From assembly GCA_031365225.1 (NCBI GenBank), contig JANLXT010000131.1, forward strand, positions 1 through 48,155: DNA of 48,155 nt, in the 5' to 3' direction. Below the pieces are notes generated by a model. It made no database searches. It was not told the DNA's origin and worked only from the letters and a program-made list of their open reading frames with translations. This DNA comes from a candidate division FCPU426 bacterium. GTDB lineage: Bacteria; Oederibacteriota; JAJYGY01; DAIDJD01. The position numbers and the translations under genes were made by a program. Below, piece after piece: positions 1,653 through 30,589 of the stretch (positions are counted from its first letter, which is position 1; every line of letters starts with the position of its first letter).

Positions 1653-1822
1653 TTATCCGAATCATGAAACAAAACCCGTGTTTTTTGTATATTTTCAATT
1701 TTTATATGTCTAATAAATTACATCTTTGTCAAATTCAGCATCGGTGATAAGTGTTTATGCTAAAGCCTTTTTTCAGTATTTTTGGGAAAAGTAAGTCATA
1801 GCACGACTCTTAAAAATTCTGG

Positions 1823-1850
1823 GCGACAGCGCCATAAAAACCATTATACT
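1823..1850 (+). promoter_or_regulatory. Candidate sigma70-type promoter GCGACA-16 nt-TATACT, with the -10 ending 8 nt before ATG 1859
   Basis: Hexamers read directly: GCGACA at 1823-1828 and TATACT at 1845-1850. There is no Shine-Dalgarno between the -10 and the ATG. The site lies in a 206-nt AT-rich spacer. The -35 match is weak (4/6). Confidence 0.3.
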
Positions 1851-1858
1851 TAGCCTCT

Positions 1859-3049
1859 ATGCGACAACGTTTAATCACCATCCTTTTATCCATCTTCTTT
1901 GTCCACTTGGCGCAGCCCGCTCTCTTTGCGGGCCCCAGCGCTGCCGAGTTGATGAGGCTCGCTTATGAAGCCCAATCCAAAGGCCAGTATCGTTTGCAAA
2001 GTTGGTACCTTAAGCGCCTGGTCGAATTAGACCCCAGCAATAGCGCTTCGCAATCATCTTTTCAAGCGGCCCTCGATCGCGCCAAGGCAGAATCAACCGT
2101 CAAACCTTGGGACGAGAACGCTGTCGCAAAGAACGATCTGCCTTCGGACGCGCCCATGCCACCCGCACGTGAGCCGATTGTCATGGCGCCAGGCTTGGGC
2201 GCGTGGGTCTATGGCGATGGCAGGACACACGCCAAAGTAGTGAACGCCTTCAATTTGACCGCGCCTTTGCGCCAACGCGTGCGCTACTTGTTTCCTTATT
2301 CAGGCAGCGTTAGCTTTCGGGCCGGCAAGATCACACTGACTTGGGATACCGACCGCGCCAAGCTGATGGCCGACACGCTGTCTGGCGACGCGCAAGTGCA
2401 CCTGATGCTCGATGGCGCCAGCATTGGCGCGTCGTCAGTCAAAGACGCCGAGTGGGACCGCGCCGCGCGTGAGATAGCCAAAGTTATCGGGGACGAGATC
2501 AAGTTCGCGGGCGTTCAATTTGATATCGAGCCGCATCTGCCGATCATGGACGCCTTTTTCGCGCGCGTGCAGGGTTATCTGAACAAGCCCGTGGGCGCGG
2601 CCGTGGGAGTCTGGTCGCCAAACACTTTTAAAAGCGTCGATTATTTAGCGCTGATGGCCTATGACTTGGCCGAGACTCCTGGCGCTTATCGCAACGCGGC
2701 TCGTGACATGGTCAAATCCTTCATGCGCGACGCGCATCGGACCAACCGTGGCGCCTTGGTCGGCGCGCCAGCCATCGCCACGCACCACGAATACGAATCA
2801 AAATCAGACACATCCCAGGGCCCGGGCATCTCGACAAAATTAAAGATGGAAACTTTTGTCTCTGGCCTGCGCTCGGCACTCACCGAAGCTTTAGAACAAA
2901 ACGATCCCAATTTTATGGGCCTAAGCATCTGGGCCCTGCATCCCGAAGGTGGCCTGCATGGTCCCGGGGACAAAGAGTGGTACTTTCCCTCAACGATCTC
3001 GCCCGCTATCTGGGACCTTTTGCGCTTGCCCGTAGAAAAGAAGCTGTGA
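1859..3049 (+). CDS. Secreted protein: signal peptide, short TPR-like helical region, then a GH18-like/TIM-barrel-like glycoside-hydrolase-type domain (function unknown)
   Basis: N-terminus 'MRQRLITILLSIFFVHLAQPALFA' is a signal peptide. 'FAGVQFDIEPH' resembles the D-x-D-x-E strand of GH18-type barrels ('DGVDIDWE'), followed by 'DYLALMAYD'. There is no SD. It is the first gene of the operon. Confidence 0.55.
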   Translation: MRQRLITILLSIFFVHLAQPALFAGPSAAELMRLAYEAQSKGQYRLQSWYLKRLVELDPSNSASQSSFQAALDRAKAESTVKPWDENAVAKNDLPSDAPMPPAREPIVMAPGLGAWVYGDGRTHAKVVNAFNLTAPLRQRVRYLFPYSGSVSFRAGKITLTWDTDRAKLMADTLSGDAQVHLMLDGASIGASSVKDAEWDRAAREIAKVIGDEIKFAGVQFDIEPHLPIMDAFFARVQGYLNKPVGAAVGVWSPNTFKSVDYLALMAYDLAETPGAYRNAARDMVKSFMRDAHRTNRGALVGAPAIATHHEYESKSDTSQGPGISTKLKMETFVSGLRSALTEALEQNDPNFMGLSIWALHPEGGLHGPGDKEWYFPSTISPAIWDLLRLPVEKKL

Positions 3050-5319
3050 CCCGACGCTCTTTACTCTTAAATCGCTGGCTACTTCTAGTTTGCCTGGCCC
3101 TTGGGTCAAGCATGGCGCGCGCGTCCACGTGGGACACGGTGCGGCTGTTTGATTGGGTCTATCCTACTGAAGCGTCTTATCAACTGTTGGCCGACAGCGC
3201 CCGTAGCGCGGGTAAGACTGGCTGGCTGGTCGATCGTATGGCGCGCCAAGAAAAGCTGCCTCAGGCTGCTGCCAAGGATCTAGCCTACGAGCTGGTGGCG
3301 AGCCCCAACTTAGATGAAGCGGCCAAGGAACGTTTAAAAGAAGCTTTTCAGGACGAATCCAAGGACTTAAAAGCCAGCAACACCAAGTCGGATGACTTGG
3401 CCGAACGCTTGGCGGCGGTGTCACGCAAGATGGATGACCTAGAGGCAGCGGTGGCGCTTAATAATTATGCCAAAACTTCAAATCCAAGCCTAGTCACTAC
3501 TATCTATTCCGGCAACCGTCTTGAAAATACCGGGGGAGTGACAGTGCCCGCTGCGCATCGCAACTACCTATTTGCAGGGGCCAGCTTTGGATTCACGGGT
3601 CAAGTGGGTGGCGGAACTTTTGGCACCTCTTTCGGCTATGATTATTTCGACAATGACAACGGCACTTATATTTCGACCAAGGGCGCGGGACTGACTATCG
3701 GTGGAGTAACGGTCTTGTTGCCCTTTGGGGACGGTGTCCTCTCAACGCGCTTGGGGGGAGGCTATTCTGCCAAGATGTCCGAACTTCTGTTCTCGGACCT
3801 GGGCACGGCCCCCAAAGATAGTTTTTTTACCAATCCGGCAGATAATTATAAGCCAAAGGTTCAGGTCAAAGTATTGGACATCGATTACCCGTCTCAAAAT
3901 AAATACACCCAAAACATCATTTATATCGAACGTCAAGGCACCGGAGAATGGTGGCCTTTTTCACATGCTCAATTTTTTTATGGTCCCAACAATACCCAGT
4001 GGTTTTACACCTACAACCCCGATACCACCAACGAAACCGCGGGGCGCTTAGATTTGGCCTTGGGTAGCGTCGGATTCTTTGATGATCTGCGCATGTACAG
4101 CGTCATGACTCATGCCGAGAATGATCGTGATCAATTAACCGCTTCGCCGCCTGGTGCCATCGTCTTTCAGACCAGCAATGGCACTGAATTGGGGACCGAG
4201 ATGACTTTTCAAGGTGGCGGTACCGCGCGCTTTTCTTACGCGCTCAGCCATTTTGAGGCGCATCCTACGATCAAAGAAAACTATCCCTACGATGACTCGG
4301 CCTACTTGGGCGCGCTTGCTTACCCGATTATGGGCCTCAATACCGCGTTAGAGTTTGGCATGGCAGGGCCCTATTTTTTTACGATCTCAAGAAAAGGACA
4401 GTTTGATGCTCACGCCCAATTAGGCGCCACCATGGATTCGTCTTATGACATCAATGCGGCGCTTCCACCCGCGGCATCTAACATCGCGTTTCAGACTTTG
4501 GTCATCGAGCCTGCGGGTCTCGCCAACAACTCGCAAAGATTGGCGGTAAAAACAGAATGGCAAGGCAGCTTTTTGTCGTGGGGGCTTATGGTGGGTTCTA
4601 ATACTAATATTCTGCCCACCACAGCCATCGTAGAATTTGCACCGGTTCTCGAAAATCGTAGTGACAACGGCTATGCTTGGATGCGAACCCTGGGCGGAAC
4701 TTATTCTGGTCCGGCGGCAAATAACTATAACAATGCGTCTGCGAAATCAGCCATACGTCCCAACGGGACCACCGACGCGGCAGCCAAATGGAGCCAGTAC
4801 TATCAAAAAGCGTATCGCAGGATCTACTTCACTACCTTGATCAGCGATGGACCGTATAGCAACCGCCTTTTAGCAGATAGCATCAAGAGCGTCAATCAAG
4901 CTGAATTGACCACCCGGCTGGATTTTAGATCATTGATCGATAGAAGCCTGCCCTTTGATCTGATCTTTACCGGGCAACTGCGCGATGTCGCTCCTCAAAT
5001 GGGCTTTCCTGCGACGGACGACAGCTCGTTCTTACAACAAAGTGTGGGCTCTGCATTCTTGACCTTTGGTCTCACTGAGACCCTCAATTTCTTGGCCATG
5101 GCTGGTTACGAAGATTGGTCCAGCAATAAAACACCCAAGCCATTTCACGGCATCGCCAAGCAAGCTGGCGTTGGTTTTGATCTGAGCTTGGATTCTTTGA
5201 TCAACGGGTTGTTAATGCAATTGCGCGTTGATTCGTACGAGCACGTCGATTTGATCTACCCTGACAAGCGTGCCTGGTCCATGTGGGGCGGTACGCTCAG
5301 CACAATCTACTCGTATTGA
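3046..5319 (+). CDS. Large outer-membrane protein: signal peptide, N-terminal head, coiled coil, beta-barrel-like C-terminal ~550 aa
   Basis: The ORF track starts at 2977, inside the upstream gene. An in-frame GTG at 3046 overlaps the upstream TGA (GTGA) and gives 'TRRSLLLNRWLLLVCLALGSSMARA|STW', a clean signal peptide with an AxA cleavage site. There is a heptad-like charged stretch ('DDLAERLAAVSRKMDDLEAAV'). The rest is Gly/aromatic-rich with an alternating pattern and ends '...TLSTIYSY', an aromatic C-terminus typical of OM beta-barrels. Confidence 0.7.
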   Translation: MTRRSLLLNRWLLLVCLALGSSMARASTWDTVRLFDWVYPTEASYQLLADSARSAGKTGWLVDRMARQEKLPQAAAKDLAYELVASPNLDEAAKERLKEAFQDESKDLKASNTKSDDLAERLAAVSRKMDDLEAAVALNNYAKTSNPSLVTTIYSGNRLENTGGVTVPAAHRNYLFAGASFGFTGQVGGGTFGTSFGYDYFDNDNGTYISTKGAGLTIGGVTVLLPFGDGVLSTRLGGGYSAKMSELLFSDLGTAPKDSFFTNPADNYKPKVQVKVLDIDYPSQNKYTQNIIYIERQGTGEWWPFSHAQFFYGPNNTQWFYTYNPDTTNETAGRLDLALGSVGFFDDLRMYSVMTHAENDRDQLTASPPGAIVFQTSNGTELGTEMTFQGGGTARFSYALSHFEAHPTIKENYPYDDSAYLGALAYPIMGLNTALEFGMAGPYFFTISRKGQFDAHAQLGATMDSSYDINAALPPAASNIAFQTLVIEPAGLANNSQRLAVKTEWQGSFLSWGLMVGSNTNILPTTAIVEFAPVLENRSDNGYAWMRTLGGTYSGPAANNYNNASAKSAIRPNGTTDAAAKWSQYYQKAYRRIYFTTLISDGPYSNRLLADSIKSVNQAELTTRLDFRSLIDRSLPFDLIFTGQLRDVAPQMGFPATDDSSFLQQSVGSAFLTFGLTETLNFLAMAGYEDWSSNKTPKPFHGIAKQAGVGFDLSLDSLINGLLMQLRVDSYEHVDLIYPDKRAWSMWGGTLSTIYSY

Positions 5320-7457
5320 TGCCTATGCGACGCACAACTCTGTTAATCCTGTTGGCTTTCTTGGTGTTGCCCCTTTTGGGGCAAGCCGAAGACATGCCCT
5401 TGCCACCGCCTTTGCCTGACGCGGACTATCGAGCGGTGCGCGAACTGCAAGCCAAGGATCAGGGAGTGCCCATGCTACCCGCGGCGGGCGCGCCTAGACA
5501 AGAAGCGCTACTTGGCATCGCCGAGCTGGGTGCTAACGCCAGCAGCGGACAAAGCTCTCGTTTTGAGGCGCGCGACTACGACGCGCTGTTCTCACTCTTG
5601 CAACGCTATCGGGATGACCTGCTAAAGCTGGGCATGGATCGTGACGCGCTCGAGGCACAATTGATCACGCTTCGTCAAAAAACCAAAGACTTAGAAGAGC
5701 GGCTCTCGCTTTTACAGCCCAAAGATGGGCTTAAGGTTCATGGTAGCGTCTCGGCAGCGTTTGATGACATGCATCTCATTGGCGACTTAGCTTTGCCGGC
5801 CTCGGTCATGCCCGGATCCACCATTGCGGGTTTAACGGTGGCGCCCAAGCCTGCGGGCGTAGGTGTGCGTTGGCAAGAAATGGCTCAGCGGGCCAATTTA
5901 GATTTTACTTTTAATCGCGGCCCCGCAACGGCCTTGGTGCGCTTTGATATCGTCGCCATTGCTGGAGCCAATGGCAAATTTGACGGCCGGCGTATTTATA
6001 TGGAAATGCGCCTGCCCGTCGCGATTCAGATTGGCGACATCGACACTGCTTTGACACCCTTAACGCTGTGGCGCAACGATGACCTGGCTCCTTTTGAACC
6101 AGAGTTATTTGTCCAAAGGCGCAACCGTTTGGTCAAGGACATGATGTTGGTCCCCAATCGTTGGCCAGTGTCGGGCGCGCGCCTTAGCACTCAACTTGAG
6201 CTCTTTGACGCCCTGACGCTGGAATTGGTGTCGCTCAGCAGTGTGATCAACGGCGCCGGCTCGACTCAATACATTACCTTCGATAAAAAGAATTTTATCA
6301 CCCGTTACAACACTTACATGCAAGGTTGGTCCGTGACCTTGCCCCTGGCGGACGACAAAGTGCGATTCTCCACCAATGGCCTACTTTTTTGGGATGTGAA
6401 CTCAACCGCTCCTGCCGCAACCGTCAATGGATTTAGCAGCATGGTTCAAAGCGGTCGTGTCGATGTCAAATGGGGTATCGTTCGTGCCGAAGCCGAGATG
6501 GCGATGTCTTCGTATGCCTATCCGGTCGCGACATCATGGACCGCGTCGGTCGCTCCATTAACTGGTACGGCCATGACGGGTTCATTGGGCGTTCAAGGCA
6601 AGTACGGCCATATCAAAGGGTTTGGCCGCGCCGTTGCCAATAGCTTTCATTCGGCTGGCGCTCAAGGCCGTACACAAGATATGAACTACGCTCCCTTGGG
6701 ACCGTTTTTGACAGACAACTCTTTTGTCAACGCGGATGGCACGCAGGGCTGGCCAAACGCGGGGGCTGTGGTTGTACCCAACGCTCCCGAGACACGCTTG
6801 AACGCGGTCTTGTTGCCCCCGGGAATGATGGTTGGTACGGCAGCGGGATCGCTCTTTCAACACCTCTTGCCTTATAGCTTTACCGAGATGCTATCTCCCT
6901 ATGGCCAAGCGACCCCCAACCGGGTCGGTGGCGGCTTGGACGGCGAAGGCAATTTCTTGAATGGCGCGGTCAAGCCCGCCGGCACTTACGAGACTTATAG
7001 CCAGATCGACAGCCCGGGTGGCACCCTTAGCCCTTTCGCTTTACAGCGCATGCGGGGTGGCGTGACCTTTGATCTAGAACCAGCGTTTGGCTGGCCTCTC
7101 TCGTTTGGAGGCGGCATGACCATGGATCAGAGCTCCAACGGACAAAAGACTCCAACGGGTAGGGACTACACCTTAACGGTCAATACCACCGATGTCGGTG
7201 GTCGGTGGAAGATCCTTAAAGATCTGGCTTTTCTTAGTGGCTGGCGGCACACCGAGGCCAAAGGCCTCAGTGACGCCTTCGCGTTTCCCGTGGACGGCCG
7301 GGTTTGGGACATGATCGGCAATGGCATCTCGTGGGATCTGCAACAAGGCGTTATGTTTGAAGCGCTCTTCAGCCAGATATTGCGTATCGATACCAATGTG
7401 CCGCGTACAGGTCTTGAAGTGGATCAGATTTACATGCGCGCGAGTTTCGAATTTTAG
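5319..7457 (+). CDS. Large outer-membrane protein: signal peptide, N-terminal head, coiled coil, beta-barrel-like region (second member of the pair)
   Basis: ATG at 5319 overlaps the upstream TGA (TGATG) and gives 'MPMRRTTLLILLAFLVLPLLGQA|EDM'. The coiled-coil segment is 'LLQRYRDDLLKLGMDRDALEAQLITLRQKTKDLEERLSLLQ', followed by 'LKVHGSVSAAFDD'. The protein ends '...MRASFEF' (terminal Phe). Confidence 0.7.
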   Translation: MPMRRTTLLILLAFLVLPLLGQAEDMPLPPPLPDADYRAVRELQAKDQGVPMLPAAGAPRQEALLGIAELGANASSGQSSRFEARDYDALFSLLQRYRDDLLKLGMDRDALEAQLITLRQKTKDLEERLSLLQPKDGLKVHGSVSAAFDDMHLIGDLALPASVMPGSTIAGLTVAPKPAGVGVRWQEMAQRANLDFTFNRGPATALVRFDIVAIAGANGKFDGRRIYMEMRLPVAIQIGDIDTALTPLTLWRNDDLAPFEPELFVQRRNRLVKDMMLVPNRWPVSGARLSTQLELFDALTLELVSLSSVINGAGSTQYITFDKKNFITRYNTYMQGWSVTLPLADDKVRFSTNGLLFWDVNSTAPAATVNGFSSMVQSGRVDVKWGIVRAEAEMAMSSYAYPVATSWTASVAPLTGTAMTGSLGVQGKYGHIKGFGRAVANSFHSAGAQGRTQDMNYAPLGPFLTDNSFVNADGTQGWPNAGAVVVPNAPETRLNAVLLPPGMMVGTAAGSLFQHLLPYSFTEMLSPYGQATPNRVGGGLDGEGNFLNGAVKPAGTYETYSQIDSPGGTLSPFALQRMRGGVTFDLEPAFGWPLSFGGGMTMDQSSNGQKTPTGRDYTLTVNTTDVGGRWKILKDLAFLSGWRHTEAKGLSDAFAFPVDGRVWDMIGNGISWDLQQGVMFEALFSQILRIDTNVPRTGLEVDQIYMRASFEF

Positions 7458-7480
7458 TTTAAATACGCAAAGGACAAGTC

Positions 7481-9445
7481 ATGCTTAGCAAATCAAAAAG
7501 AATTAGGACCCTGGCGTTAGCTCTTGCCTTGAGCCTTAGCGCAACCCGAGGCCACACCTTTGTGACCTCGGCCATCCTTGAGTTCAGCTCGGATGACCAG
7601 CTTGGTTTTTATTTGAATGGCAACACCTTGCTGCAAGTGAGTGTTTTTGAGCCCTTTAGCTTTCAAGCCCTATCTACCGCCGATGGCACCTTGCCTTTAG
7701 AGATGTTCGACACCGACGGCGACAATCTTTTGGCTTGCCGTAACACCAACGGGGGTGGCGAGAGCATGGGCGCCGCCTATCGCCTGACCGTGCACCATAG
7801 CGATGGTGATCCCGTGGTGATCTGGTCCGTGCCCGAACAAGCCAAGATGCTGCATGTCATCCGCCCAGCCCGAGAGCCTGAGGGCTGGAACCAGATCAAT
7901 TTTAATGACAGCGCTTGGCGCCCGGCGACCCTTGGCTTTTCGGCTGGCATCTGGGCCATCTGGCCCCAATTATCCGACGCGTCCTTTGGTAATTTTTTAG
8001 GCTTGAATGGTTACGTGCCTTTTATGTCCCACAACAAAGACGGCATGGCCAATTCAAGCGACGTGAATATCTTCCGCAGTCATTTTCGTTTTCCGGTCAA
8101 ACCCGCCAAAGTCGTCGCGATTGTTCAGCCTAGCAGTGGCCGCGTGGGACAAAACATCGCTATCCGCTTAGTACCCGGCCCTGATTCTGCCAACTTTAGC
8201 CAGTTTAATCTTTTGGCGTGGCTACCTAAAGGTTTGGACTTTGTCTCGGCATCCCCCGGTGGCACCTACGACCCTGCCACGCGCCGTGTTTCGTGGTCCA
8301 GCGGTGCGAAGGCTTTGGGTGTGCATTACCTTAAACTGCCTGCCGTACGCGTTGATTCGGCTAGCGGCTGGACCGCGCCACAGCTTGCGCTGGGTCCGCT
8401 CAAGCCAGAGCTTGGTAATCGGATCCAGATCAATGTCACCGACGCTGTATTTAACAGGGGAACCAGTTTTGGCGCCAAACGCCCAGGTTGGTTCAGTCTT
8501 CAGACTCCCGCTCCGGAGCCTGGGACCCCAAAAATTTTAGGGGTGATTTTTCGAACCCAATTACGCTCGTCCGCCAGCAAGGTCAATGTGACTGATAGCG
8601 ACAGCCGCAAAGAGATTGATCCCGTCTTTTTTAACTATTCAGTCGATGGCAGACTAAAGGGCGCGCTTAAAAAAGATGTCGAGGTCTCGCGCAACACCAA
8701 CAGCGGTGAATGGTATGACGGATATTACGACGCCAGCGAAGATCGCGCCTGGACCTGGGCTGACGTGCAAAATGTGAAAGTAAAGATCGAATCAAGCGTG
8801 CGTGGCAACCAAGAGCGCATTTTGATGGCTGGGACCCAGATGATCGTGCGGGTGTACCAACCCGCGGCGGTCAGCAACTATTGCTACGTGAAGGTGACCG
8901 AGCCCCGTTGCGCCACGCTTGAGATCAAGGCGGGCTTGTTCCGCGCTGGCGCCAAGCTGGTCACGTCCGACGCGGTCGAGTTCCCTATCAATCAGCAGGC
9001 CTGCGCACCCACACCGGTGCCCACACCAACCATGGCGCCCCCTCCACCGCGCTTGCCCACGCCCGAGCCGACGTTGGCGCCGCAGGTCACGCCCAAGCCT
9101 AAGATCGATCCTGGCACGGGTCGCCCAGGCGAGATACAGCTGGGCCTTGGCTGTCTGTCGGCCAACCCAGAGCCGTTCAACTTTGCCGGCACCTTCATCA
9201 ACTTCTGCTTGAAGCAGGATGCCGACGTCACCATCAACATCTACAACGCCAAAACCGGCGCCTTGGTACGTGGTTTCAAGGCGGGTAATTTCCGTGGTGG
9301 CGACAGTCAGGTCTTCTACAACGCCATGGACGACAAACAACGTCCCTTGCTGCCGGGCGAATATGTTTACGAACTAGTGGCCGAGAAGAAGGGCGTGCGC
9401 GAGTCACGCAACTCCCTGTTCCACTTTAAAAAAGACCGGCGCTAA
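7481..9445 (+). CDS. Secreted surface protein: beta-sandwich N-domain, DUF11-like repeat domain, Pro-rich linker, FlgD-Ig-like/T9SS-CTD-like C-terminal domain
   Basis: SD AAAGGA lies 7 nt upstream of the ATG. The signal peptide is 'MLSKSKRIRTLALALALSLSA'. 'LLAWLPKGLDFVSASPGGTYDPATRRVSWS' matches the DUF11/conserved-repeat pattern. The C-terminus has 'ANPEPFNFAGT..VTINIYNAKTGALV..GEYVYELVA'. Confidence 0.7.
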   Translation: MLSKSKRIRTLALALALSLSATRGHTFVTSAILEFSSDDQLGFYLNGNTLLQVSVFEPFSFQALSTADGTLPLEMFDTDGDNLLACRNTNGGGESMGAAYRLTVHHSDGDPVVIWSVPEQAKMLHVIRPAREPEGWNQINFNDSAWRPATLGFSAGIWAIWPQLSDASFGNFLGLNGYVPFMSHNKDGMANSSDVNIFRSHFRFPVKPAKVVAIVQPSSGRVGQNIAIRLVPGPDSANFSQFNLLAWLPKGLDFVSASPGGTYDPATRRVSWSSGAKALGVHYLKLPAVRVDSASGWTAPQLALGPLKPELGNRIQINVTDAVFNRGTSFGAKRPGWFSLQTPAPEPGTPKILGVIFRTQLRSSASKVNVTDSDSRKEIDPVFFNYSVDGRLKGALKKDVEVSRNTNSGEWYDGYYDASEDRAWTWADVQNVKVKIESSVRGNQERILMAGTQMIVRVYQPAAVSNYCYVKVTEPRCATLEIKAGLFRAGAKLVTSDAVEFPINQQACAPTPVPTPTMAPPPPRLPTPEPTLAPQVTPKPKIDPGTGRPGEIQLGLGCLSANPEPFNFAGTFINFCLKQDADVTINIYNAKTGALVRGFKAGNFRGGDSQVFYNAMDDKQRPLLPGEYVYELVAEKKGVRESRNSLFHFKKDRR

Positions 9446-9470
9446 CCAGCGCTCACGCTAGAGGCAATGA

Positions 9471-9632
9471 ATGCGAATGCTTAAAGTAACCCTGATTTTT
9501 GTCGCGCTCGCGCTTGGTCTAAACGCCTGCGCGGGTATTATGGAGTTTCGCTTGCCAAAAGAATTTGACGGCAAAAAGACGGTTCAAGACCCACCCGTTG
9601 TTCAAGCTTTCTCTGACCGCAAGACCGTCTGA
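9471..9632 (+). CDS. Small (53 aa) predicted lipoprotein, absent from the ORF track (presumably below its length cutoff)
   Basis: My own translation: MRMLKVTLIFVALALGLNACAGIMEFRLPKEFDGKKTVQDPPVVQAFSDRKTV*. SD GAGG (9461-9464) lies 6 nt upstream of the ATG. The lipobox-like sequence is 'LGLNAC'. Its TGA overlaps the next gene's ATG (TGATG at 9630-9634). Confidence 0.55.
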   Translation: MRMLKVTLIFVALALGLNACAGIMEFRLPKEFDGKKTVQDPPVVQAFSDRKTV

Positions 9633-10660
9633 TGCGGCTCTGGACTTGGATCCTACTGCTCTCACTCTTGCCGGCTTTGGCGCCAGCCAAGGTGCATTTT
9701 ATCAACAAGGGCGTACGCTATCACATCGGCGACAACCGCTTTGGCTTGTCTGAGGATAGCAATTTTATGGACGCTTACCCCGTGGTGGGTGAGCAGTGGG
9801 TGCAAGCTTTCACCGTCAGTGAAGCCGACACGGTCAAGATCCGCATCGCCAATATCTGGGGCGTGGATGATTGCCCGTATTGCAAAGTTTTGGTGCAGAT
9901 CGACGAATACTTGATGGGTCGCTTGTCCGAAGAGAATAACCACAAGGCTTTTGACACGCCCACCCCGCTGGCCTATCGCGTTGAACCCGGCCGCACGTAT
10001 TATCTAAAGGTCACCAGCATCGGCAAAGACGGGTCGGTGGATGACTTTGCCCTTGAAGGTGTCAGCGTCGAGACGGTCTTGGCCGATGTGACCTTTGTTG
10101 GTCCGGTCACTATCCATGAGCCCGATCGCCCCATTCCGACACCCATGCCCACGCCTATGTACGGTCCTTGTCCCGGAGCCGAACCCCGGGGGGCGTGGCT
10201 GCCTGTTGAATCAAAGACCAAGGGGTATGCGGTCTTGAATGGCGCGGGTCAGGGTTCTTTGATCACAGGATCGACACCTTTGGATGTGGGTGGCTATGTC
10301 GATATTCATGTCAAAGTTCAAAACGTGGCTCAAGGCGATCTGGTCGGGCAGGCGCTCGAAATTGGTTTGGGGACTGGCCGAGCGGGTTGGGTCTTTAGTT
10401 TTGGTAGCGAATCCAAGCTACCCTATCACGGCAATCTACGTGGGCCCGGAAGATATCAAGCTTCTGTTTTTGATGCCAAGGGTTGGCGCGACGGCTGGAA
10501 TCTTTTGCGCTTGGCGCGCTGCCCCAGCGGACGGACGATGTTGCTTTTAAATAATCAAAGCCTTCTCGACTTGCCCAACACACCTAACGGTCCGGCGGAT
10601 ATCAGTGTCCGAACTTTAGGCGTGGCAGCTTGGATCGCGGACAGTCCCCAACAAAAATAG
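9632..10660 (+). CDS. Secreted two-domain beta-sandwich protein (lectin/ConA-like C-domain possible), function unknown
   Basis: Signal peptide 'MRLWTWILLLSLLPALAPA'. A Pro-rich linker 'PDRPIPTPMPTPMYGPCPG' separates two beta-rich halves. It is the last gene before the terminator. Confidence 0.65.
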   Translation: MRLWTWILLLSLLPALAPAKVHFINKGVRYHIGDNRFGLSEDSNFMDAYPVVGEQWVQAFTVSEADTVKIRIANIWGVDDCPYCKVLVQIDEYLMGRLSEENNHKAFDTPTPLAYRVEPGRTYYLKVTSIGKDGSVDDFALEGVSVETVLADVTFVGPVTIHEPDRPIPTPMPTPMYGPCPGAEPRGAWLPVESKTKGYAVLNGAGQGSLITGSTPLDVGGYVDIHVKVQNVAQGDLVGQALEIGLGTGRAGWVFSFGSESKLPYHGNLRGPGRYQASVFDAKGWRDGWNLLRLARCPSGRTMLLLNNQSLLDLPNTPNGPADISVRTLGVAAWIADSPQQK

Positions 10661-10672
10661 CGCCCGTTTCTT

Positions 10673-10706: not shown

Positions 10707-10725
10707 AATTGGAGGATTCCGTAGC

Positions 10726-11109
10726 TTACTTGCGCGTTCGAGCCTCTATTTTTTCAAGAAGCCTTCCGCCCTGCCCCGAGCTGAGTGCCAGCCCCACAAG
10801 TACTCCGGCTCCATTGGCGACCGCGTCCATCAGCTCCATCTGTCGAACGCCACCCATTCCTTGCAAAACTTCAAGTGCCGCACCCATCGCGATAAATCCC
10901 AACGCTCGCACTAGGCGCCCGCGTTCGTCGCTCAAGACCTGACCAAACCACGCCATCAACAGAAAGTAAGCGCCCACATGTTCTAGTTTGTCGATATGCG
11001 CGATGGCGGGGGCCTCTGGCAAACGAGCGGTCAGGCTCACCCAAATGATCAAGCCCACGTAGGTCCAGCCCGCGAGCAAGTACCAGCTCAAATAGCGCAA
11101 CGGCCTCAT
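10726..11109 (-). CDS. VanZ-like family membrane protein
   Basis: 127 aa with about 4 hydrophobic segments. The motif 'HIDKLEHVGAYFLLMAWF' is typical of VanZ-like proteins. It has a 4-nt overlap with the upstream gene. Confidence 0.75.
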   Translation of the reverse strand: MRPLRYLSWYLLAGWTYVGLIIWVSLTARLPEAPAIAHIDKLEHVGAYFLLMAWFGQVLSDERGRLVRALGFIAMGAALEVLQGMGGVRQMELMDAVANGAGVLVGLALSSGQGGRLLEKIEARTRK

Positions 11110-12299
11110 AACGCCATTCCCACCGCGTGCCCGCTAGCCCAGGCCCACTGAAAGTTATAGCCACCCAACTCACCCGTCACATCCACGACTTCGCCACAAA
11201 AATAGAGCCCAGGCACATCGCGCGCGCCCAACGTCTTGCTGTCTAGATCACGTGTATCGACGCCCCCGCGCGTCACCTCGGCTTTATGATAGCCGGCGGT
11301 GCCGTGCGGTTTAAGGCTCCACGACTGGACAGCTGCCCCAAAGGCGCGCAGATCCTTGTCCGACAATCTCGAGAAGGGCTCATCCCCCGGCAAAAATAAG
11401 GCCTGCCAACGCTGAGACAAACGCTGGGGCCAACGTTTTTGTAGCCAGTCACCAACATGGTGCAATGGTTTTTCGCGCTTGGTCTGTAGCAGGGACTCGG
11501 TCGCATCTTGGCCAGGCCATAAATTTATAAGCAATGGCTCCCCAGGTCGCCAGTAGAGTGAGGCTTGCAACGCGACGGGGCCGCTGAGCCCCGTGTGGGT
11601 GAACAGCAAAGCTTCTTGAAAGCGTTTCTTGCCTACATGCAAGATCGCGTCCACCGCCAAGCCCTGCAGGCCTTCAAAGCGTTTTTGATCCTGTGTATCA
11701 AAAACAAAGCCATCCAGGGCGGGCGCTGTCTCGACCAAGCGCAAACCAAACTGTTGAGCTATCTGTAGACCCAGATCAGTCGCGCCTAAACTTGGGTACG
11801 AAAGGCCACCCAACGCCACGACCAAGGCGGGCGCTCGATAACGTTCTTTTCCCGCCACGACTTCAAAAATTGCTCCCAGGCGCTCCACTTGTTCAACGGC
11901 AACGCTCAACTTGATGTTGACGGCGCTGACGTCCAGTTCTCGCTCGAGCAGCTCGACCACCTGCATGGCGCTGCCATCACAAAAGAGCTGGCCCAGCGTT
12001 TTTTCGTGATAGGCGATGCCGGCGTCCCGGATCCAGGCTTCGGTGTCTTTGGCGTTGAAGCGCGCCAGGGCCGAACGACAAAATCGGGGATTGGCGGATA
12101 AGTAGTGCCCATCCGCCGCCCCCCGATTAGTAAAATTACAGCGCCCACCACCACTGATGGGGATCTTGCCCCCCACCCGTTTGCCGCTATCCAACAACAA
12201 GACTCGCTTGCCCCGTTTGGCCGCCTGAAAAGCGGCCATGCAACCCGCAGCACCAGCGCCTAGTACGATCGCGTCAAACTCTTCCATGCTGCCTTCCAA
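11106..12299 (-). CDS. HI0933/YhiN (BaiN-like) family NAD(P)/FAD-dependent flavoprotein
   Basis: N-terminus 'FDAIVLGAGAAGCMAAFQAAKRGKRVLLLDSGKRVGGKIPISGGGRCNFTN' is the family hallmark. The C-terminus has 'GEVVDVTGELGGYNFQWAWASG'. Confidence 0.9.
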   Translation of the reverse strand: MEGSMEEFDAIVLGAGAAGCMAAFQAAKRGKRVLLLDSGKRVGGKIPISGGGRCNFTNRGAADGHYLSANPRFCRSALARFNAKDTEAWIRDAGIAYHEKTLGQLFCDGSAMQVVELLERELDVSAVNIKLSVAVEQVERLGAIFEVVAGKERYRAPALVVALGGLSYPSLGATDLGLQIAQQFGLRLVETAPALDGFVFDTQDQKRFEGLQGLAVDAILHVGKKRFQEALLFTHTGLSGPVALQASLYWRPGEPLLINLWPGQDATESLLQTKREKPLHHVGDWLQKRWPQRLSQRWQALFLPGDEPFSRLSDKDLRAFGAAVQSWSLKPHGTAGYHKAEVTRGGVDTRDLDSKTLGARDVPGLYFCGEVVDVTGELGGYNFQWAWASGHAVGMAL

Positions 12300-12313
12300 A
12301 ACCCAAGGCGCCT

Positions 12314-13648
12314 TTATGGCGCTTTAGGCGCTTCTTTGGGGAAAAATTTTGCGTTCACTTTGGCCACGGCCGCAGGCATGACATCTTTAGCTTGGGCGGT
12401 GCCACGGTAGACCTCGTTCATGGCCTGCGCTGGACCCGAGGCTAAAACTTCGCGCCATTTTACCATGTGCGTGCGCGTGTAAATATCAGCGACAGCTCCC
12501 AAGAGGATCTTTTTATTGAGGGGTTTTTGCCCGTCTAAGAACGCGGGCCCTTCCGCCACCTTTTTATTGGCCGGTTGGATCAGACCCGTCGCTGCCAGCT
12601 TGGCCTGCGCTTGAGGGGATGTCATAAATTCAACCAAGGCCCAGGCGTTGTCGGCTTTCACGCCTGTCAAACGTCCTGACATGGCATAACCAGTGCCACC
12701 ACCCTGGACGCGCCGCAAGCCTGTCCCTTGGTGCTTGGGAGGCAACGCAATGTCCCAATCAAAGTTCTTGATCTGACGGAAACTAGGCGATTGCCAGACG
12801 CCTGAATAAAACATGGCCAAGCGCCCTGTTTTAAATAGCTCGGAGCCTGTTTGCACCGTTCCCGCCTGCGATCCAGCGGCAGGATCCTGCATGACTTTGT
12901 AGCGATGGATCAGATCTGCTCTAAACTGTAAACCTTCCATCGATGCGGGGCTATCCAAGGCTACCCGGGTTGGGTTCAGTGGATTGTCTACCTCACCGCC
13001 GCCCGCTGAGTAAATAAAGACATCGGGCATTTCCCAGTCATCTGAATAGCCATAAACCTCGACATTGCCTTTGGCGTCACGCTTAGTAAGTTTTTTGGCC
13101 AAGCTGACAAAGTCATCTGGCCAGGACAGATTTGCGGTTGGAAATGGAACACCCATTTTCTTAAAATAGTCTTTGTTGTAGTAGAGGCACGCCACTGGCG
13201 CCACATCGCGCGGGACTGCCACCAATTTTTTGTCATAGGTGAATTCTTCGATCATCTCGGGATAAAAGTCTTTTAATCCAAGTTGGGGGCTGGCGGCCGC
13301 ACGTTGACTTAAGTCCGCCAAGGCGCCAAAAGCCAGGTACTTGTCGGCGTAGTAACTCGACACCATAAAGACATCGGGTGAGGCTTGCGCCGCCATCATG
13401 ATAGTTAGCTTGTCATCGTAAGGTGTGCCCCCTGCCGAGGCGCGTTGATTTTCGATCGTGATCTCGGGATGCAAAGCCTGAAATTCTTTAGCCACCTGCT
13501 CGAGGATCTTTACTTCTTCGACGTCGCCCCAATACATAAAGGTGAGTTTGTTGGGGTTTTCTTTACGTTGGCATGCGTTCATGCCAAACATGCACAGCAC
13601 CAGACCGATCATGATCCAGGCGCTTTTTTTACTTTGGTTCTGTTTCAC
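12314..13648 (-). CDS. ABC transporter sugar/oligosaccharide substrate-binding lipoprotein (family 1 SBP), with no adjacent permease or ATPase genes
   Basis: The ORF-track start at 13855 runs into the upstream gene. A GTG at 13648 is preceded by SD AAGGAG with a 6-nt spacer. That start gives 'VKQNQSKKSAWIMIGLVLCMFGMNAC', a lipoprotein signal. The body has 'LTFMYWGD..EE', typical of family 1 solute-binding proteins. Confidence 0.8.
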   Translation of the reverse strand: MKQNQSKKSAWIMIGLVLCMFGMNACQRKENPNKLTFMYWGDVEEVKILEQVAKEFQALHPEITIENQRASAGGTPYDDKLTIMMAAQASPDVFMVSSYYADKYLAFGALADLSQRAAASPQLGLKDFYPEMIEEFTYDKKLVAVPRDVAPVACLYYNKDYFKKMGVPFPTANLSWPDDFVSLAKKLTKRDAKGNVEVYGYSDDWEMPDVFIYSAGGGEVDNPLNPTRVALDSPASMEGLQFRADLIHRYKVMQDPAAGSQAGTVQTGSELFKTGRLAMFYSGVWQSPSFRQIKNFDWDIALPPKHQGTGLRRVQGGGTGYAMSGRLTGVKADNAWALVEFMTSPQAQAKLAATGLIQPANKKVAEGPAFLDGQKPLNKKILLGAVADIYTRTHMVKWREVLASGPAQAMNEVYRGTAQAKDVMPAAVAKVNAKFFPKEAPKAP

Positions 13649-13691
13649 TCGGGACTCCTTGGCTTGGGTTAAAAATGCTGTTGAACTAGAC

Positions 13692-15446
13692 CTAAAGTTT
13701 GGACCAACCGACCCCACGGTGCCAGGGCGTCCCAAAACGATCAGGACATTTAAGGTCCCATTCATCGATGCCCTCTCGGACGCTACCAGGTATTTGCCCA
13801 AGGCTCGCCAAGGCTTCTTCGCGCTTGATCGATCCGCGCTCCATGCCTTGTTCAAGCTTTAGGAATTGAGCAAAAGCCTCAAGGCGAGGTGGCAACCCTT
13901 TCATTGGAGGCACGTCGGGCGCTACCGCGCTCGTCTCAACGCTCAACGAGCGCGCGACCTGAGCGCGTTGCTCAAGTGCTTCGTAAAATCGTAACGCGGC
14001 ATTGGCCTCAGATCCGTATTCCACCAATAGATGCGCTTGAGCGAGCTGCCAAGGGTCCTGCGATGGATCCCACAAAAGTGCCGCTTGCACCGCGGGATGC
14101 GCGCCGTCTGGCCAGGCTTGAACAGGCGCCTGACAAAAAACAGCTCCCTCGGCTCCTGTGGCTAGTAGATAGAGCAGATCCAGGCCCAGAGTACGTAAGA
14201 TTGAGTGGGGCGCGTATTGCCGATAGTGCGCGGGCCAAAGGTGATAATCAAACATCAACCCCGGGATCGTAGGCAGGCTCTTGCGCCAATTTTCCCATAG
14301 CCAGCGATACTCGGCTAGGTCTGGCCAGCGTTTAAGCTCGTTGTCGGCGTTCCAAAGATCCGGACGTTTTGCGCCAACCTCGGTCCAACTTTGTCCATAG
14401 GTCCGGCCCCAAGGGGCAAATTGAAACCCAAGGTTTCCTTTGAGTGTCGGAGGGGCCTTGGGAGCCTGCAAGAGATTGGTGTATGCGATAAAATCAAGCC
14501 GAGTCGTCAAACCTGCTTGTTTTAACAGATCAACCGTCTCTTGAATTGTTTTGTGATACCAGTGATTGGCCCCGCGTTGACGACAATCAGCGCATTGACA
14601 GGTGTTGTTGACGCCATCGCCTAGCCACAAGGCCAATCGTTCGGCCTCGGTATGCTTGGCGGCATACTTTGCCACCGTTTGGGCGACTGCTTCACGGCAG
14701 GCAGCCTGCGATAGACAGAGTTGGGTGTTAGCGGGTTGATCTTTAAAAAGGCTTCTTGCTCCGTCCCGAAGAGCCGCAAAACGAGTGGTCGCGGCTGGCA
14801 CGGGCCCTTCGTGTTTTTCCCAACCCTGGGCTTGGGGTAGGTCAAGCACCACAGGCAAAAATCCGTGGCCGCCGCGTTGTAAAATCATGCCGCGCTTGCA
14901 AACCTCGATAGCGGCTAAGCGATCCCACTCTAACGATTTTTCAAGGCTCAGTTCTGGCTCGGCTCGTCTAAAAAATGTCCGCATATCCATAAACTGAAAA
15001 TGGATCACATTGATGCGCAACTTGGCCGCCCAATCCAATGCTTCGACCAATTGTTCAAGTGTGTAACCGCCTTCGACCGACCACCCTCTGGTTTTAAACA
15101 CCGCTTTTTGACGATCCGCGCGCAGTTCTTGCCAGCGTGGCTCCCCCGAGGGTAGCACCATCGCCTTGTCGCCTGGTCGTGGCCACGCAAATCCAAGTTG
15201 CTTTAGCGCGTGATAGACACCGTAGAGACCCGAGCGAGGATTGGAGGCACGCACGATAACTTTGCGCCGATCAGGTTCTAGCTCAAACTCATCGCGTTCA
15301 AGCTCAGCGCATTCCAATGCCAGTTCAGGTTGTTGTGCGGACCGGATGCCAGCCAACGAAAGGTGCCGGCGCCATTCTTGTTGGCAAAATTCAAGCACGT
15401 GCTCTTTTTGGGTGCTAGCGTCTGATGTAGATTTAAGAGATGGCAT
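13692..15446 (-). CDS. Cytoplasmic DUF4838-like / GH20-related TIM-barrel protein (putative glycoside hydrolase)
   Basis: No signal peptide. 'RASNPRSGLYGVYHALKQLGFAWPRPGD' followed by a TIM-barrel-like region and the Cys cluster 'CQCADCRQ'. This recalls DUF4838 proteins as I remember them. The assignment is from memory, not a search. Confidence 0.5.
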   Translation of the reverse strand: MPSLKSTSDASTQKEHVLEFCQQEWRRHLSLAGIRSAQQPELALECAELERDEFELEPDRRKVIVRASNPRSGLYGVYHALKQLGFAWPRPGDKAMVLPSGEPRWQELRADRQKAVFKTRGWSVEGGYTLEQLVEALDWAAKLRINVIHFQFMDMRTFFRRAEPELSLEKSLEWDRLAAIEVCKRGMILQRGGHGFLPVVLDLPQAQGWEKHEGPVPAATTRFAALRDGARSLFKDQPANTQLCLSQAACREAVAQTVAKYAAKHTEAERLALWLGDGVNNTCQCADCRQRGANHWYHKTIQETVDLLKQAGLTTRLDFIAYTNLLQAPKAPPTLKGNLGFQFAPWGRTYGQSWTEVGAKRPDLWNADNELKRWPDLAEYRWLWENWRKSLPTIPGLMFDYHLWPAHYRQYAPHSILRTLGLDLLYLLATGAEGAVFCQAPVQAWPDGAHPAVQAALLWDPSQDPWQLAQAHLLVEYGSEANAALRFYEALEQRAQVARSLSVETSAVAPDVPPMKGLPPRLEAFAQFLKLEQGMERGSIKREEALASLGQIPGSVREGIDEWDLKCPDRFGTPWHRGVGWSKL

Positions 15447-15568
15447 GTCTATATCTTATCGATGCTAAGACAGGTCAAAAAAAATTAAATACTTAAAAAA
15501 GTGATATTGGTCCTTAAATAAGTGACTAAATAATTCTAAAAATCAACCCCTCACAATAAAGTGCCACC

Positions 15569-17644: not shown

Positions 17645-17780
17645 GGCTATCTGAAGGCGCTTGATTTTTTTGACGTGAGGATCAGATCGCAGGTGAGCAT
17701 GGGGCTATTGTATCTGGCGTCCTGATCGGCCACACACGAAAGATTAGGACAAAAATGATATCTTGCCTGTCTGAGTTGAC

Positions 17781-19961: not shown

Positions 19962-20023
19962 ACCCAGAATGGGCTCTTAAGTATGCTTTGTTTTGATTGA
20001 AACCATGTCGTTTTTAGATAGAA

Positions 20024-21175
20024 CTATGCTGAATAAAGCTGAAAAAGTGCGCCACGCATGTTGGTTTTATACTCTCGAGCAAATTCACGCCCATGGGCTT
20101 TTAGGAGCTGGGCGGCATGTTTTATAGACCAAGCTTGGCTCCGGTTGGGGGCCTGCAGCACCGAAACACGCGTAGCGCCCACCCGTTGCCAGCGGCCCTG
20201 TGACCCTTGCACGCTACCAGCGACCAACCAACAGGGCTTGCGCGCACGCTGGGCGTAAAGACTGATCGCAATAGGTAGCTTGCCTGCCAAAGACTGAGCG
20301 TCCAAGCGACCTTCTCCACTGATGACCCAGTCGCAGGTTTGTAGGCGTTCTTTAAAACCAGTCAAACGCAACAGCGTTGCTGCACCCGCCACCAGGCGCG
20401 CGCCCGCAAAAGCTTGCAACCCTGCGCCCAGACCACCCGCCGCACCTGAACCAGCGCGCTTAGACAAGGACTTGGGCAGATGACGAGCTAGGACGCGTAA
20501 GCCTTTATCCAAACGCAGGACCTGCGCGCGACTAGCGCCTTTTTGTGGGCTATAGACAAAAGCTGCGCCGTGCCGACCAAAGAGGGGGCTGTCCACATCA
20601 CACAGGACTTGCAACCGCATGCCTTGTAATGCTGGCTTGACTGGCCGCTTTAACTGCACAAGCTCGACAAGCGAAGCTCCTCCGGCGGCTAGCGCCCGGC
20701 CATGCCGATCTAAAAATTCCCATCCGAGGGCTCGGGCCATGCCCATGCCACCGTCCGTCGTCGCGCTACCACCCAAACCTAGCCAGACCTCACGGATACC
20801 TTTGCGCCGTAGCGCTAAGAGCAGCTGACCTAGGCCCTGACTATCGCTACGCAATGCGTCGCGGCGTTTGGCTGGCACGAGCATCAGACCGATCGCTTGG
20901 GCCGATTCCACCACCGCGCGCTTGCCAGGCAGCTCTAACCATCGGGCCAAAACTGGCTGACCCAAAGGACCCGCGACCCGCGATCGGCGTAGCCTGCCTC
21001 CCAAAGACGCGCGTACGGCCAGCAACAGGCCAGGCCCACCATCTGAAAGCGGCAAGCACTCACAACGGGCTTTGGGAAGCACCTTTTGAATGCCCTTTGC
21101 CAGAGCGCGCCCCGCCGCAACAGCGTCCAGGCTGCCTTTAAAATCATTAGGCGCGATCAAAAAACGGGGTGTCAT
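20024..21175 (-). CDS. glxK: Glycerate kinase (GlxK/GarK family)
   Basis: N-terminus 'FLIAPNDFKGSLDAVAAGRALAKGI' and overall length (383 aa) are typical of the glycerate kinase family. It has a 4-nt overlap with the upstream gene. Confidence 0.8.
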   Translation of the reverse strand: MTPRFLIAPNDFKGSLDAVAAGRALAKGIQKVLPKARCECLPLSDGGPGLLLAVRASLGGRLRRSRVAGPLGQPVLARWLELPGKRAVVESAQAIGLMLVPAKRRDALRSDSQGLGQLLLALRRKGIREVWLGLGGSATTDGGMGMARALGWEFLDRHGRALAAGGASLVELVQLKRPVKPALQGMRLQVLCDVDSPLFGRHGAAFVYSPQKGASRAQVLRLDKGLRVLARHLPKSLSKRAGSGAAGGLGAGLQAFAGARLVAGAATLLRLTGFKERLQTCDWVISGEGRLDAQSLAGKLPIAISLYAQRARKPCWLVAGSVQGSQGRWQRVGATRVSVLQAPNRSQAWSIKHAAQLLKAHGREFAREYKTNMRGALFQLYSA

Positions 21176-22973: not shown

Positions 22974-22994
22974 AGCAGAGCCATCGCAGGCCGC

Positions 22995-23981: not shown

Positions 23982-24001
23982 CCAAGGCTCCTCAGTGTGG
24001 C

Positions 24002-24913: not shown

Positions 24914-24930
24914 CGCTCTCTCCGTGTGAT

Positions 24931-26115: not shown

Positions 26116-26187
26116 CAGAAACGCCTGCGCTGCCTACGCTCTCTGATGTCCTTTATTGTATCAAACATAGCCGTGTTGCTACGATCC

Positions 26188-26490
26188 CTAACGCAAGACC
26201 ACGAGCTTGCCCACGGGCCCGCTGACTTGCTCACCGTCACCGCGCACGCGCACGCGGTAGTAATAGAGCCCGTTGGGCGCTTGCTCCAACCAGTCTGTGG
26301 GCAGGCCCAGCCTGGTCCAGCCTGCGCTGAGCGGTCCCTGCCTGATGCTGCTCACCAAGCGCATGCCCACGTCATAGATCCGCAGCTCAGACTCGTCCAC
26401 ATCATTCTCTAACGAGACCGCGAGCGCCTGTGGGTTGGGATTGGGCACCGCGGCTTGGGCCAACAAGTTTGGTTTGCCTTTTTTCTTGGA
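26188..26490 (-). repeat. ~300-nt CTD-encoding cassette, copy 1 (3' end of the GH16 gene)
   Basis: Aligns without gaps to 28426-28727. I counted roughly 15-20 mismatches by eye. Similarity stops abruptly at the KKKGK codons. Confidence 0.9.
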
Positions 26491-28416: not shown

Positions 28417-28425
28417 CCTAGGCAC

Positions 28426-30459: not shown

Positions 30460-30589
30460 GCCAATAGTCTATCGACCTGCTCTGCCCCGAAAAACGTTTT
30501 GATGGTGAAAAAAGTGATAATAAGACTTACGAATTTGACTTTGAAACCGCATCTTGGACTGCTGGCCCAAAATACGAAATAGTTATCAT

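Follow-up and report, generated by a model that had tools for sequence, protein, structure and literature searches.

A conserved six-gene operon of exported proteins in a candidate division FCPU426 bacterium, putatively an outer-membrane module for glycan uptake without SusC/SusD

Contig JANLXT010000131.1 of a candidate division FCPU426 bacterium (assembly GCA_031365225.1) was analysed over a stretch of 48,155 nucleotides, which is referred to here as the window. Positions 1859-10660 of the window hold six open reading frames (ORFs) on the plus strand, g1 to g6, and these constitute one operon of secreted and outer-membrane proteins (Table 1). With a confidence slightly better than even, we consider the operon to be an outer-membrane module for the capture and uptake of glycans, similar to a polysaccharide utilisation locus (PUL) and working without SusC/SusD or TonB. 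This function is proposed on the basis of genomic context and two structure models. The ancient core of the module appears to be the gene pair g2 and g3, which encodes one modelled and one presumed outer-membrane beta-barrel. Homologous loci are cited by number (L001, L003 and so on).

The operon is compact and wholly extracytoplasmic, in line with an earlier note on this DNA, which had described a single, tightly coupled unit. All six products are exported, as each begins with a basic and then a hydrophobic stretch (a signal peptide, with a lipobox in the case of g5), and no 19-residue hydrophobic segment was found beyond the N-termini across g1-g6, so that the operon is without an inner-membrane component. 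The genes are chained by start/stop overlaps or by short gaps with a Shine-Dalgarno motif, and the five junctions read as had been claimed. The GTG start of g2 overlaps the stop of g1 (ctGTGA at 3044-3049), g2 and g3 join at TGATG (5317-5321), and the ATG of g6 overlaps the stop of g5 (TGATG at 9630-9634). The gap between g3 and g4 measures 23 nt and contains AAAGGA (aaaggacaagtcATG precedes 7481), and that between g4 and g5 measures 25 nt and contains GAGG (agaggcaatgaATG precedes 9471). The g2 start at 3046 is favoured over an upstream GTG at 2977, because the homologues begin at an equivalent 'MTR...'; for g3 there is an alternative ATG at 5325.

The boundaries of the operon were also confirmed. 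Upstream lies an AT-rich spacer, and downstream a strong bidirectional terminator, the stem of which is perfect (GCCCAGGCC-TTAA-GGCCTGGGC, with A6 and T6 runs on the flanks). Three sigma-70-like hexamer pairs occur on the plus strand in this upstream region (1629-1656, 1664-1693 and 1823-1850), as consensus matches only, and an Rfam scan of the whole window, including the spacer, matched no family. Within the operon both terminator-like sites (14 found versus 13.1 expected) and internal promoters were at chance level.

The gene set is conserved far beyond chance, since the same families occur in the same order on independent contigs. The gene set was identified on at least eight independent contigs from metagenomes or metagenome-assembled genomes (MAGs), some of which are labelled candidate division FCPU426. 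It is complete in L001, L003 (with genes for 386, 806, 751, 640, 58 and 344 aa), L004, L005, L012 and L014. L013 has the same genes as the operon, on a contig that ends after g4, and on the contig carrying P0015 the g1-g6 set was assigned from gene sizes only. The possibility that the genes are fortuitously adjacent, which had been raised in the earlier note, is thereby countered: synteny is strongly conserved in related contigs. In L001 and L009 g6 stands ahead of the cluster, so that there the set of genes is kept and their order is not; in L001 the set, with g6 first, is accompanied by a 258-aa lipoprotein.

The pair g2 and g3 was found in at least 14 loci and is always adjacent. Homologues of g2 are present in L001, L003-L005, L007-L009, L012-L014 and L018, and, as weaker matches, in L017 (E 3e-15) and L016 (E 3e-5). 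The more distant loci L008, L009 and L018 retain g2, g3, g5 and g4; the first two of these are diverged copies from a single MAG with the label candidate division FCPU426, and in L018 paralogues of g3 stand in tandem. The still more distant loci L016 and L017 retain only the g2 and g3 pair of the operon families, and in L015 a g3-like protein of 570 aa is accompanied by an outer-membrane protein (OMP) of 836 aa that is not detectably g2-like. Since the distant loci keep the pair alone, g2 and g3 are taken to be the ancient core, and g1, g4, g5 and g6 to be clade-specific. The metagenome and genome scans depended on peptide patterns and yielded few loci (5 and 4, respectively).

Searches of curated collections did not place any of the six products in a family, as the earlier note had anticipated. 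Pfam and NCBIfam gave nothing above cutoff for g1-g6 and their distant homologues, and PDB sequence-profile searches with g1, g2, g3, g4 and g6 returned one TPR motif, one coiled coil and one weak FlgD match only. Structure prediction was run on g1 and g3, and produced a TIM barrel of glycoside hydrolase (GH) type and an outer-membrane barrel with generic matches only, respectively.

The assignment of g3 as an outer-membrane beta-barrel is supported by its signal peptide, by a closed antiparallel barrel in the model and by a C-terminal aromatic beta-signal (...EF in 15 of 16 sequences, with the terminal F invariant). The AlphaFold 2 (AF2) model, made from 16 sequences (pLDDT 68, pTM 0.62), consists of helices at residues 34-132 followed by about 22-23 strands over residues 137-711. 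Foldseek against the PDB gave 345 barrel matches at E<=1e-3, all of them to generic outer-membrane barrels (TMq 0.2-0.36), including MOMP, usher pores, OccD/K, DcaP, ScrY, chitoporin, MtrB, TonB-dependent receptors and SlpA (7zgx). The fold class is thus clear and the family new, because hundreds of generic barrels are returned at low TMq. When 1.84 billion representatives were scanned in full with HMMER for the g3 profile, 354 proteins were retrieved at E<=1e-3, of which 44 at E<=1e-30. Pfam assigned no family to 10 sampled g3 relatives (two sub-threshold matches to OMP_b-brl and one match at chance level). A further search for g3 gave 15 homologues with 36-43% identity, from metagenomes or MAGs throughout.

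The best conserved parts of g3 lie outside the strands: a helix (residues 91-110), a loop (241-260, window about 6039-6098) that reads 'LTPLTLWRND..PFEP', and an insert of about 90 residues (441-540, window about 6639-6938) that carries 'GAQGRT', 'LGPFLTENS' and 'DPYGAATPNR.G.G'. The conserved loop and insert are modelled at pLDDT 34-59, and AlphaFold cannot place the insert. Two of the loop/insert motifs are also present in the 570-aa g3 homologue found in L015. A plug, a partner interface and a ligand site are candidate roles for these segments.

The protein encoded by g2 is presumed to be an outer-membrane beta-barrel as well, in view of its signal peptide, a coiled-coil match at positions 76-194 (E 7.7e-4, PDB profile search) and a conserved C-terminal ...LSY, of which the terminal Tyr is invariant; its mean column identity is 54%. 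A strand-amphipathicity scan meant for g2 recovered 6 of about 22 strands on g3 as a control and was discarded. The earlier description of two proteins of >700 aa with a coiled coil and a beta-barrel-like part is thus backed by the AF2 model for g3, and is a presumption for g2. The two proteins are not paralogues, as the comparison gave a BLASTP E of 0.68 and an hhalign probability of 10%.

The proposed role in glycan uptake follows mainly from the neighbourhoods of the pair, as sugar-related genes are found in every homologous locus examined (Table 1). In the unrelated loci L008 and L017 a LacI gene and the g2 homologue share 4 nt at the start of the latter (6261-7268/7265 and 4986-6011/6008, respectively), and because this overlap occurs in two unrelated loci, translation of the regulator and of the barrel pair is apparently coupled. 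Most of the accessory proteins encoded around the pair are lipoproteins, with a common 'DFE..G' start and a common final strand 'yIDdVxF'. Three of the nine match CBM_11, two CIA30 and one CBM30, and they resemble a variable family of proteins that bind glycans at the surface. In L017 three lipoproteins follow the pair, and one of these matches CBM_11 above cutoff. We regard this as the signature of a PUL, because the cassettes of carbohydrate-binding modules (CBMs) vary, sugar repressors are coupled to the first barrel gene, importers lie downstream and several paralogous copies exist.

Several observations weigh against a function in glycan uptake. The operon itself contains neither a glycoside hydrolase nor a regulator, and the hydrolases of the window are encoded on the opposite strand, 5-20 kb away. 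As the hosts are rich in carbohydrate-active enzymes (CAZymes), some of the co-localisation might reflect no more than background. The g1 family as a whole does not conserve the catalytic-type residues, and hhalign detected no relation between g6 and the CBM11-like accessory lipoproteins. Moreover, a g3 barrel of about 22-23 strands without a plug or a TonB box would need some other gating.

Table 1. Features of the operon and its surroundings in the window, and features of homologous loci
Sequence	Feature	Position	Strand	Description
Window	AT-rich spacer, presumed promoter region	1653..1858	.	GC 32%, compared with 55% in the operon
Window	g1	1859..3049	+	396 aa; signal peptide, N-terminal TPR motif, (beta/alpha)8 barrel model
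Window	g2	3046..5319	+	757 aa; GTG start, signal peptide, conserved N-terminal domain, coiled coil, presumed beta-barrel
Window	g3	5319..7457	+	712 aa; N-terminal periplasmic helical/coiled-coil region and outer-membrane barrel of about 22-23 strands (model)
Window	g4	7481..9445	+	654 aa; signal peptide, multi-domain and beta-rich, P/T linker, FlgD_ig-like C-terminal domain
Window	g5	9471..9632	+	53 aa; lipoprotein of about 33 aa when mature, lipobox LNAC
Window	g6	9632..10660	+	342 aa; secreted, two conserved blocks, proline-rich linker
Window	Bidirectional intrinsic terminator	about 10673-10706	.	AAAAAAGCCCAGGCCttaaGGCCTGGGCTTTTTT; common to the operon and the convergent minus-strand cluster
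Window	Convergent cluster, putative partner by proximity and by the context of homologous loci	11106..32437	-	Pfam assignments
L001	Neighbour			GH9
L001	Accessory protein	12349-13125
L003, L004, L005 and contig carrying P0015	Neighbours			GH99-like DUF5010 protein and AraC regulators
L008	Neighbours			GH20, periplasmic sugar-binding protein, g2 start overlapped by a LacI gene, Malectin lipoprotein encoded between g3 and g5
L009	Neighbours			GH42 and GH3
L009	Accessory protein	9274-10053
L015	Neighbours			40% GC; Por_Secre_tail cargo, GH5, pectate lyase, GH43, two lipoproteins after the pair
L016	Neighbours			CBM30/CBM11 lipoprotein before the pair, two CBM-like lipoproteins after it, SIS, SBP_bac_1
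L016	Accessory proteins	6789-7484, 14242-15777
L017	Neighbours			SSF symporter, GH31, LacI overlapping g2, two ABC sugar permeases
L017	Accessory proteins	10439-13039
L018	Accessory protein	8408-9097
Contig carrying P0016	Neighbours			CBM30 and GH20

If the operon does serve glycan uptake, g2 and g3 would form a heteromeric pair of outer-membrane barrels, the N-terminal coiled coils of which reach into the periplasm. The g4 protein, held by its tail resembling FlgD_ig or a sorting-type C-terminal domain (CTD), and g6 would bind polysaccharide, or pieces of it, at the mouth of the barrel, a role that Malectin, CBM11 or CBM30 lipoproteins may have in other lineages. Oligosaccharides produced by the neighbouring CTD-tagged hydrolases would then cross one or both barrels without TonB energy, and in the periplasm g1 would bind or trim them before they are taken over by ABC or SSF importers. 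The small lipoprotein g5 might stabilise or gate the assembly of g4 and the barrels, and expression would be controlled by sugar-responsive AraC or LacI regulators.

A more far-reaching proposal, the chances of which we put clearly below even, is that g2 and g3 are the first representatives of a new class of outer-membrane glycan translocon, which is heteromeric, independent of TonB and equipped with periplasmic coiled-coil stalks. It would be the counterpart of SusC/SusD in FCPU426-like candidate phyla and, through distant homologues, would extend to other phyla; the long-unexplained OMPs on which cellulose degraders of the Cytophaga type depend for substrate uptake would be among its members. 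It is an open question how polysaccharide fragments pass the outer membrane in degraders that fall outside the SusC/SusD paradigm, such as Cytophaga, Fibrobacter-like organisms and many candidate phyla of peat and soil, and a TonB-independent translocon related to the Cytophaga proteins would, if real, bear on this long-standing question. The operon supplies a conserved and so far unannotated list of parts, consisting of two barrel families and variable binding proteins. These parts provide candidates for the annotation of glycan-uptake loci in uncultured carbon-cycling bacteria, as well as structural targets (a possible plug-less large-barrel transporter), and they bear on whether the 'atypical PUL' of Cytophaga belongs to a much wider family.

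The homologous loci share with SusC/SusD-type PULs the presence of one or more barrels, surface glycan-binding proteins, CAZymes and a sugar-responsive regulator, and also the occurrence of several diverged copies per genome, each with its own set of enzymes. CAZymes, glycan-binding proteins and sugar regulators indeed co-localise in the homologous loci examined; in the window the CAZymes and an AraC regulator are located in the adjacent convergent cluster. The defining families are different. No match to Plug, TonB_dep_Rec or TIGR04056 was obtained for g2 and g3, even at E<=1, and the N-terminus of g3 models as helices instead of a plug. The SusD family was not found among the six proteins, and g1 has a single TPR motif and is not a lipoprotein. 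SusC is one barrel, whereas two unrelated barrels are present here, and SusC has nothing that corresponds to their N-terminal periplasmic coiled coils.

The closest analogue in architecture, likened by its list of parts alone, is the 'atypical PUL' chu_1276-1280 of Cytophaga hutchinsonii, so that the earlier claim of a set matching no described system holds for curated families and less so for this cluster. According to the published description, chu_1276-1280 encodes two OMPs needed for the assimilation of cellulose and sugars, two bimodular beta-sandwich proteins, one of which has a CBM11-like fold and was shown to bind cellulose, and an endoglucanase (PMC12016534). Both systems have tandem OMP genes without the signature of SusC/SusD. 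The secreted two-beta-sandwich proteins of about 350-375 aa that follow the OMPs in Cytophaga may correspond to g6 here, although the latter, with 342 aa and two blocks, has no CBM match. The layout of L015 is alike as well, with an 836-aa OMP, a 570-aa OMP, two lipoproteins (one of 358 aa, which matches CBM_11 weakly, and one of 211 aa) and a GH5 cellulase gene adjoining this cluster. The Cytophaga cluster is linked to a GH and induced as a unit, whereas the window operon has hydrolases nearby and none inside. Moreover, g1, g4 and g5 are not described for the Cytophaga cluster, and the host of the window belongs to an FCPU426-like candidate phylum instead of the Bacteroidota.

The same CBM and CAZyme context would also be expected of an adhesion complex on insoluble polysaccharide, in which the barrels merely anchor binding proteins on chitin, cellulose or mannan and nothing is imported. 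Such a role would agree with the capture of the FCPU426/Goldbacteria lineage by cellulose binding, in single-cell work that links this lineage to cellulose degradation (PMC7031533). We nevertheless hold it to be unlikely. Two very large conserved barrels with conserved inserts exceed the needs of an anchor, and the nearby ABC permeases, SSF symporter and periplasmic binding proteins suggest a chain of transport. In addition, the analogous OMPs of C. hutchinsonii affect the assimilation of glucose and cello-oligosaccharides, according to work cited in PMC12016534.

Coiled coils followed by barrels are also known from ScrY, DcaP and chitoporin, passive barrels that all match the g3 model. These have 16-18 strands in 350-500 residues, whereas in g3 about 22-23 strands are accompanied by a conserved insert of about 90 residues; the TM-scores are 0.2-0.3 and sequence similarity is absent. 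Together with SlpA (7zgx), in which an N-terminal domain, a coiled coil and a large barrel likewise follow one another, the matches to DcaP and ScrY could point to general porins, or to envelope tethers of the OmpM/SlpA type, by which deep-branching diderms fasten their outer membrane to the cell wall. The coiled-coil and large-barrel architecture of g3, the coiled-coil match of g2 and a superficially SLH-like motif at the N-terminus of g2 would fit such tethers. We consider this very unlikely, as OmpM/SlpA proteins carry an SLH domain and none was detectable here, neither in Pfam at E<=1 (with g2 and its L016 homologue) nor in a PDB profile search with the N-terminal domain of g2. The SLH-like reading of this N-terminus was therefore dropped. 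Furthermore, the pair occurs as multiple sugar-regulated paralogues in a catabolic context, and not as one abundant housekeeping gene.

The best conserved of the six proteins is g4 (45-48% identity, 66% mean column identity), which on the basis of its sequence is probably a surface-exposed accessory or binding subunit. The earlier note had named it a DUF11-like surface protein with a tail like that of FlgD-Ig or the CTDs of type IX secretion systems (T9SS). A FlgD_ig-like tail is present in all five g4 homologues (best E 2.5e-8), and in the window's own g4 it stays below the Pfam cutoff; the DUF11 match is weak. The type A/B CTD models TIGR04183 and TIGR04131 did not match g4, the tail of which matches FlgD_ig only. 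That this tail is of the same class as the CTDs of the window hydrolases was also claimed, and the alignment of the two is borderline (hhalign probability 50%, E 1.7e-4).

From these tails the earlier note had derived two possible roles, either a module by which CTD proteins are assembled or anchored at the surface or a structural surface layer. In the anchoring version, the barrels would dock the tails of g4 and the hydrolases as a platform for enzyme display, and would not be channels. This agrees with the FlgD_ig-like end of g4 in all homologues and its alignment to the hydrolase CTDs, with the extra g4-like genes in L004 and L018, and with the Por_Secre_tail cargo around L015. The ORF upstream of the operon (1-1652) carries a T9SS type A sorting domain (TIGR04183, 31.7 bits versus the NCBIfam cutoff of 23), which also fits and suggests that the organism has a T9SS-like sorting pathway. 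In T9SS itself a barrel is paired with a surface protein in which a CTD-like domain is retained, as g4 could be here (PorV-PorU, PorQ-PorZ). However, PorV and PorQ are 14-strand FadL-like barrels, and the models of PorV, PorQ, PorU, PorZ and SprA match none of the six proteins. The CTD-bearing g4 is confined to one clade and stands outside the universal core of g2 and g3: g4 and g5 are missing from L015-L017, although L016 and L017 keep the pair and L015 a g3-like barrel. Several diverged copies per genome, the coupling to LacI and the downstream ABC sugar permeases would be unexpected of a general sorting device. We therefore rate an anchoring function as improbable, and the role proposed in the earlier note is probably wrong.

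The 53-aa lipoprotein described in the earlier note is borne out by the lipobox of g5, which reads LNAC here and SGC, TGC or QGC in the homologues. The invariant pattern of g5 is C..F..P......K...DPP, and the gene adjoins g4 even in the distant loci L008, L009 and L018. The protein encoded by g6 (61% mean column identity) is presumed to consist of two beta-sandwich domains, and Pfam and PDB profile searches gave no match to known families. It is a candidate glycan-binding subunit of the proposed uptake module.

For g1, the AF2 model made from 7 sequences (pLDDT 75, pTM 0.73) shows TPR helices followed by eight strand/helix repeats (residues 113-358), and the TPR motif at residues 28-75 is the sole PDB sequence match of the protein. 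The top Foldseek matches are barrels of GH113, GH18-like, GH5 and GH99 enzymes (E 4e-7 to 1e-4, TM about 0.5). Of the GH18-like TIM barrel with a TPR-like helix that had been proposed, the TPR and the GH-type TIM barrel are thus retained and the family is not. No GH family of Pfam matched g1, Glyco_hydro_18 included, the DxxDxDxE motif on beta4 is missing, and the resemblance to GH113, GH5 and GH99 is equal. Strand beta4 reads FDIEP in the window protein versus NPRCC or APACC in the orthologues. The candidate catalytic Glu at the end of this strand and the segment 'ATHHEYE' after beta7 are kept only in the subclade of the window. Because the candidate Glu residues are confined to this subclade, g1 may be catalytic here and a binding protein in the other members. 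As judged from the model, it is probably a periplasmic subunit that binds or processes oligosaccharides.

A TPR motif and a GH-type barrel followed by outer-membrane barrels would also be expected of genes that supply the periplasmic and outer-membrane steps of exopolysaccharide secretion (in systems of the Pel, Bcs, Pga or alginate type). This appears extremely improbable for the operon, since no synthase, glycosyltransferase, c-di-GMP receptor, OPX or Wzx/Wzy is found beside the pair in about 15 loci. The neighbours of the pair are catabolic enzymes, importers and repressors instead, and the TPR motif sits on g1 and not in a TPR-porin fusion.

The convergent cluster downstream of the operon contains a flavoprotein, a sugar ABC binding protein (SBP_bac_1), DUF4838, enzymes of sugar-acid catabolism, a 615-aa AraC regulator and four secreted hydrolases of GH18, GH8, GH16 and GH18 (15569-30459, minus strand). 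The hydrolases share a CTD of about 95 aa with the pattern 'PNPNP...NGxYYYR...KLVVLR'. The CTD-containing 300 nt of the GH16 and second GH18 genes (26187-26486 and 28425-28724) are 94% identical, which indicates that only the sorting module was recently duplicated or underwent gene conversion. Also in this cluster, the minus-strand ORFs 12314-13855 (ABC sugar-binding protein) and 13692-15446 (DUF4838) overlap by 164 nt, and the ABC sugar-binding protein probably starts downstream of its first TTG. Further on, the window encodes polyphosphate kinase 2, a Ppx/GppA phosphatase, a PilZ-domain protein and a CHASE2-adenylate/guanylate cyclase (33072-33875, 37684-39101 and 42308-44476), genes that have no evident link to the operon.

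In the sister loci, genes for DUF5010 proteins (L003 1427-2770, L004 1414-2754, L005 3654-5009) are found that are absent from the window. In L004, L005 and the contig carrying P0015 the operon is preceded by the DUF5010 gene and then an AraC-type regulator, and in L003 the DUF5010 gene stands directly before g1 and the AraC gene downstream of g6. The DUF5010 profile weakly matches the GH99 structure 5ngw (E 1.3e-3), a hint that the substrate in the clade with this gene is of alpha-mannan type; a literature search on DUF5010 found no papers. A relation of g1 to these GH99-like proteins was rejected (probability 0.4%). In L001, on a peat-bog contig, an ORF of >2446 aa (15433-22346) lies directly downstream of the cluster.

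Finally, the ORF at positions 1-1652 of the window (plus strand), of which the 5' end is missing, contains a long Pro/Thr-rich low-complexity region and several FlgD_ig-like repeats. The first kb of the window has 65% GC and a strong skew.

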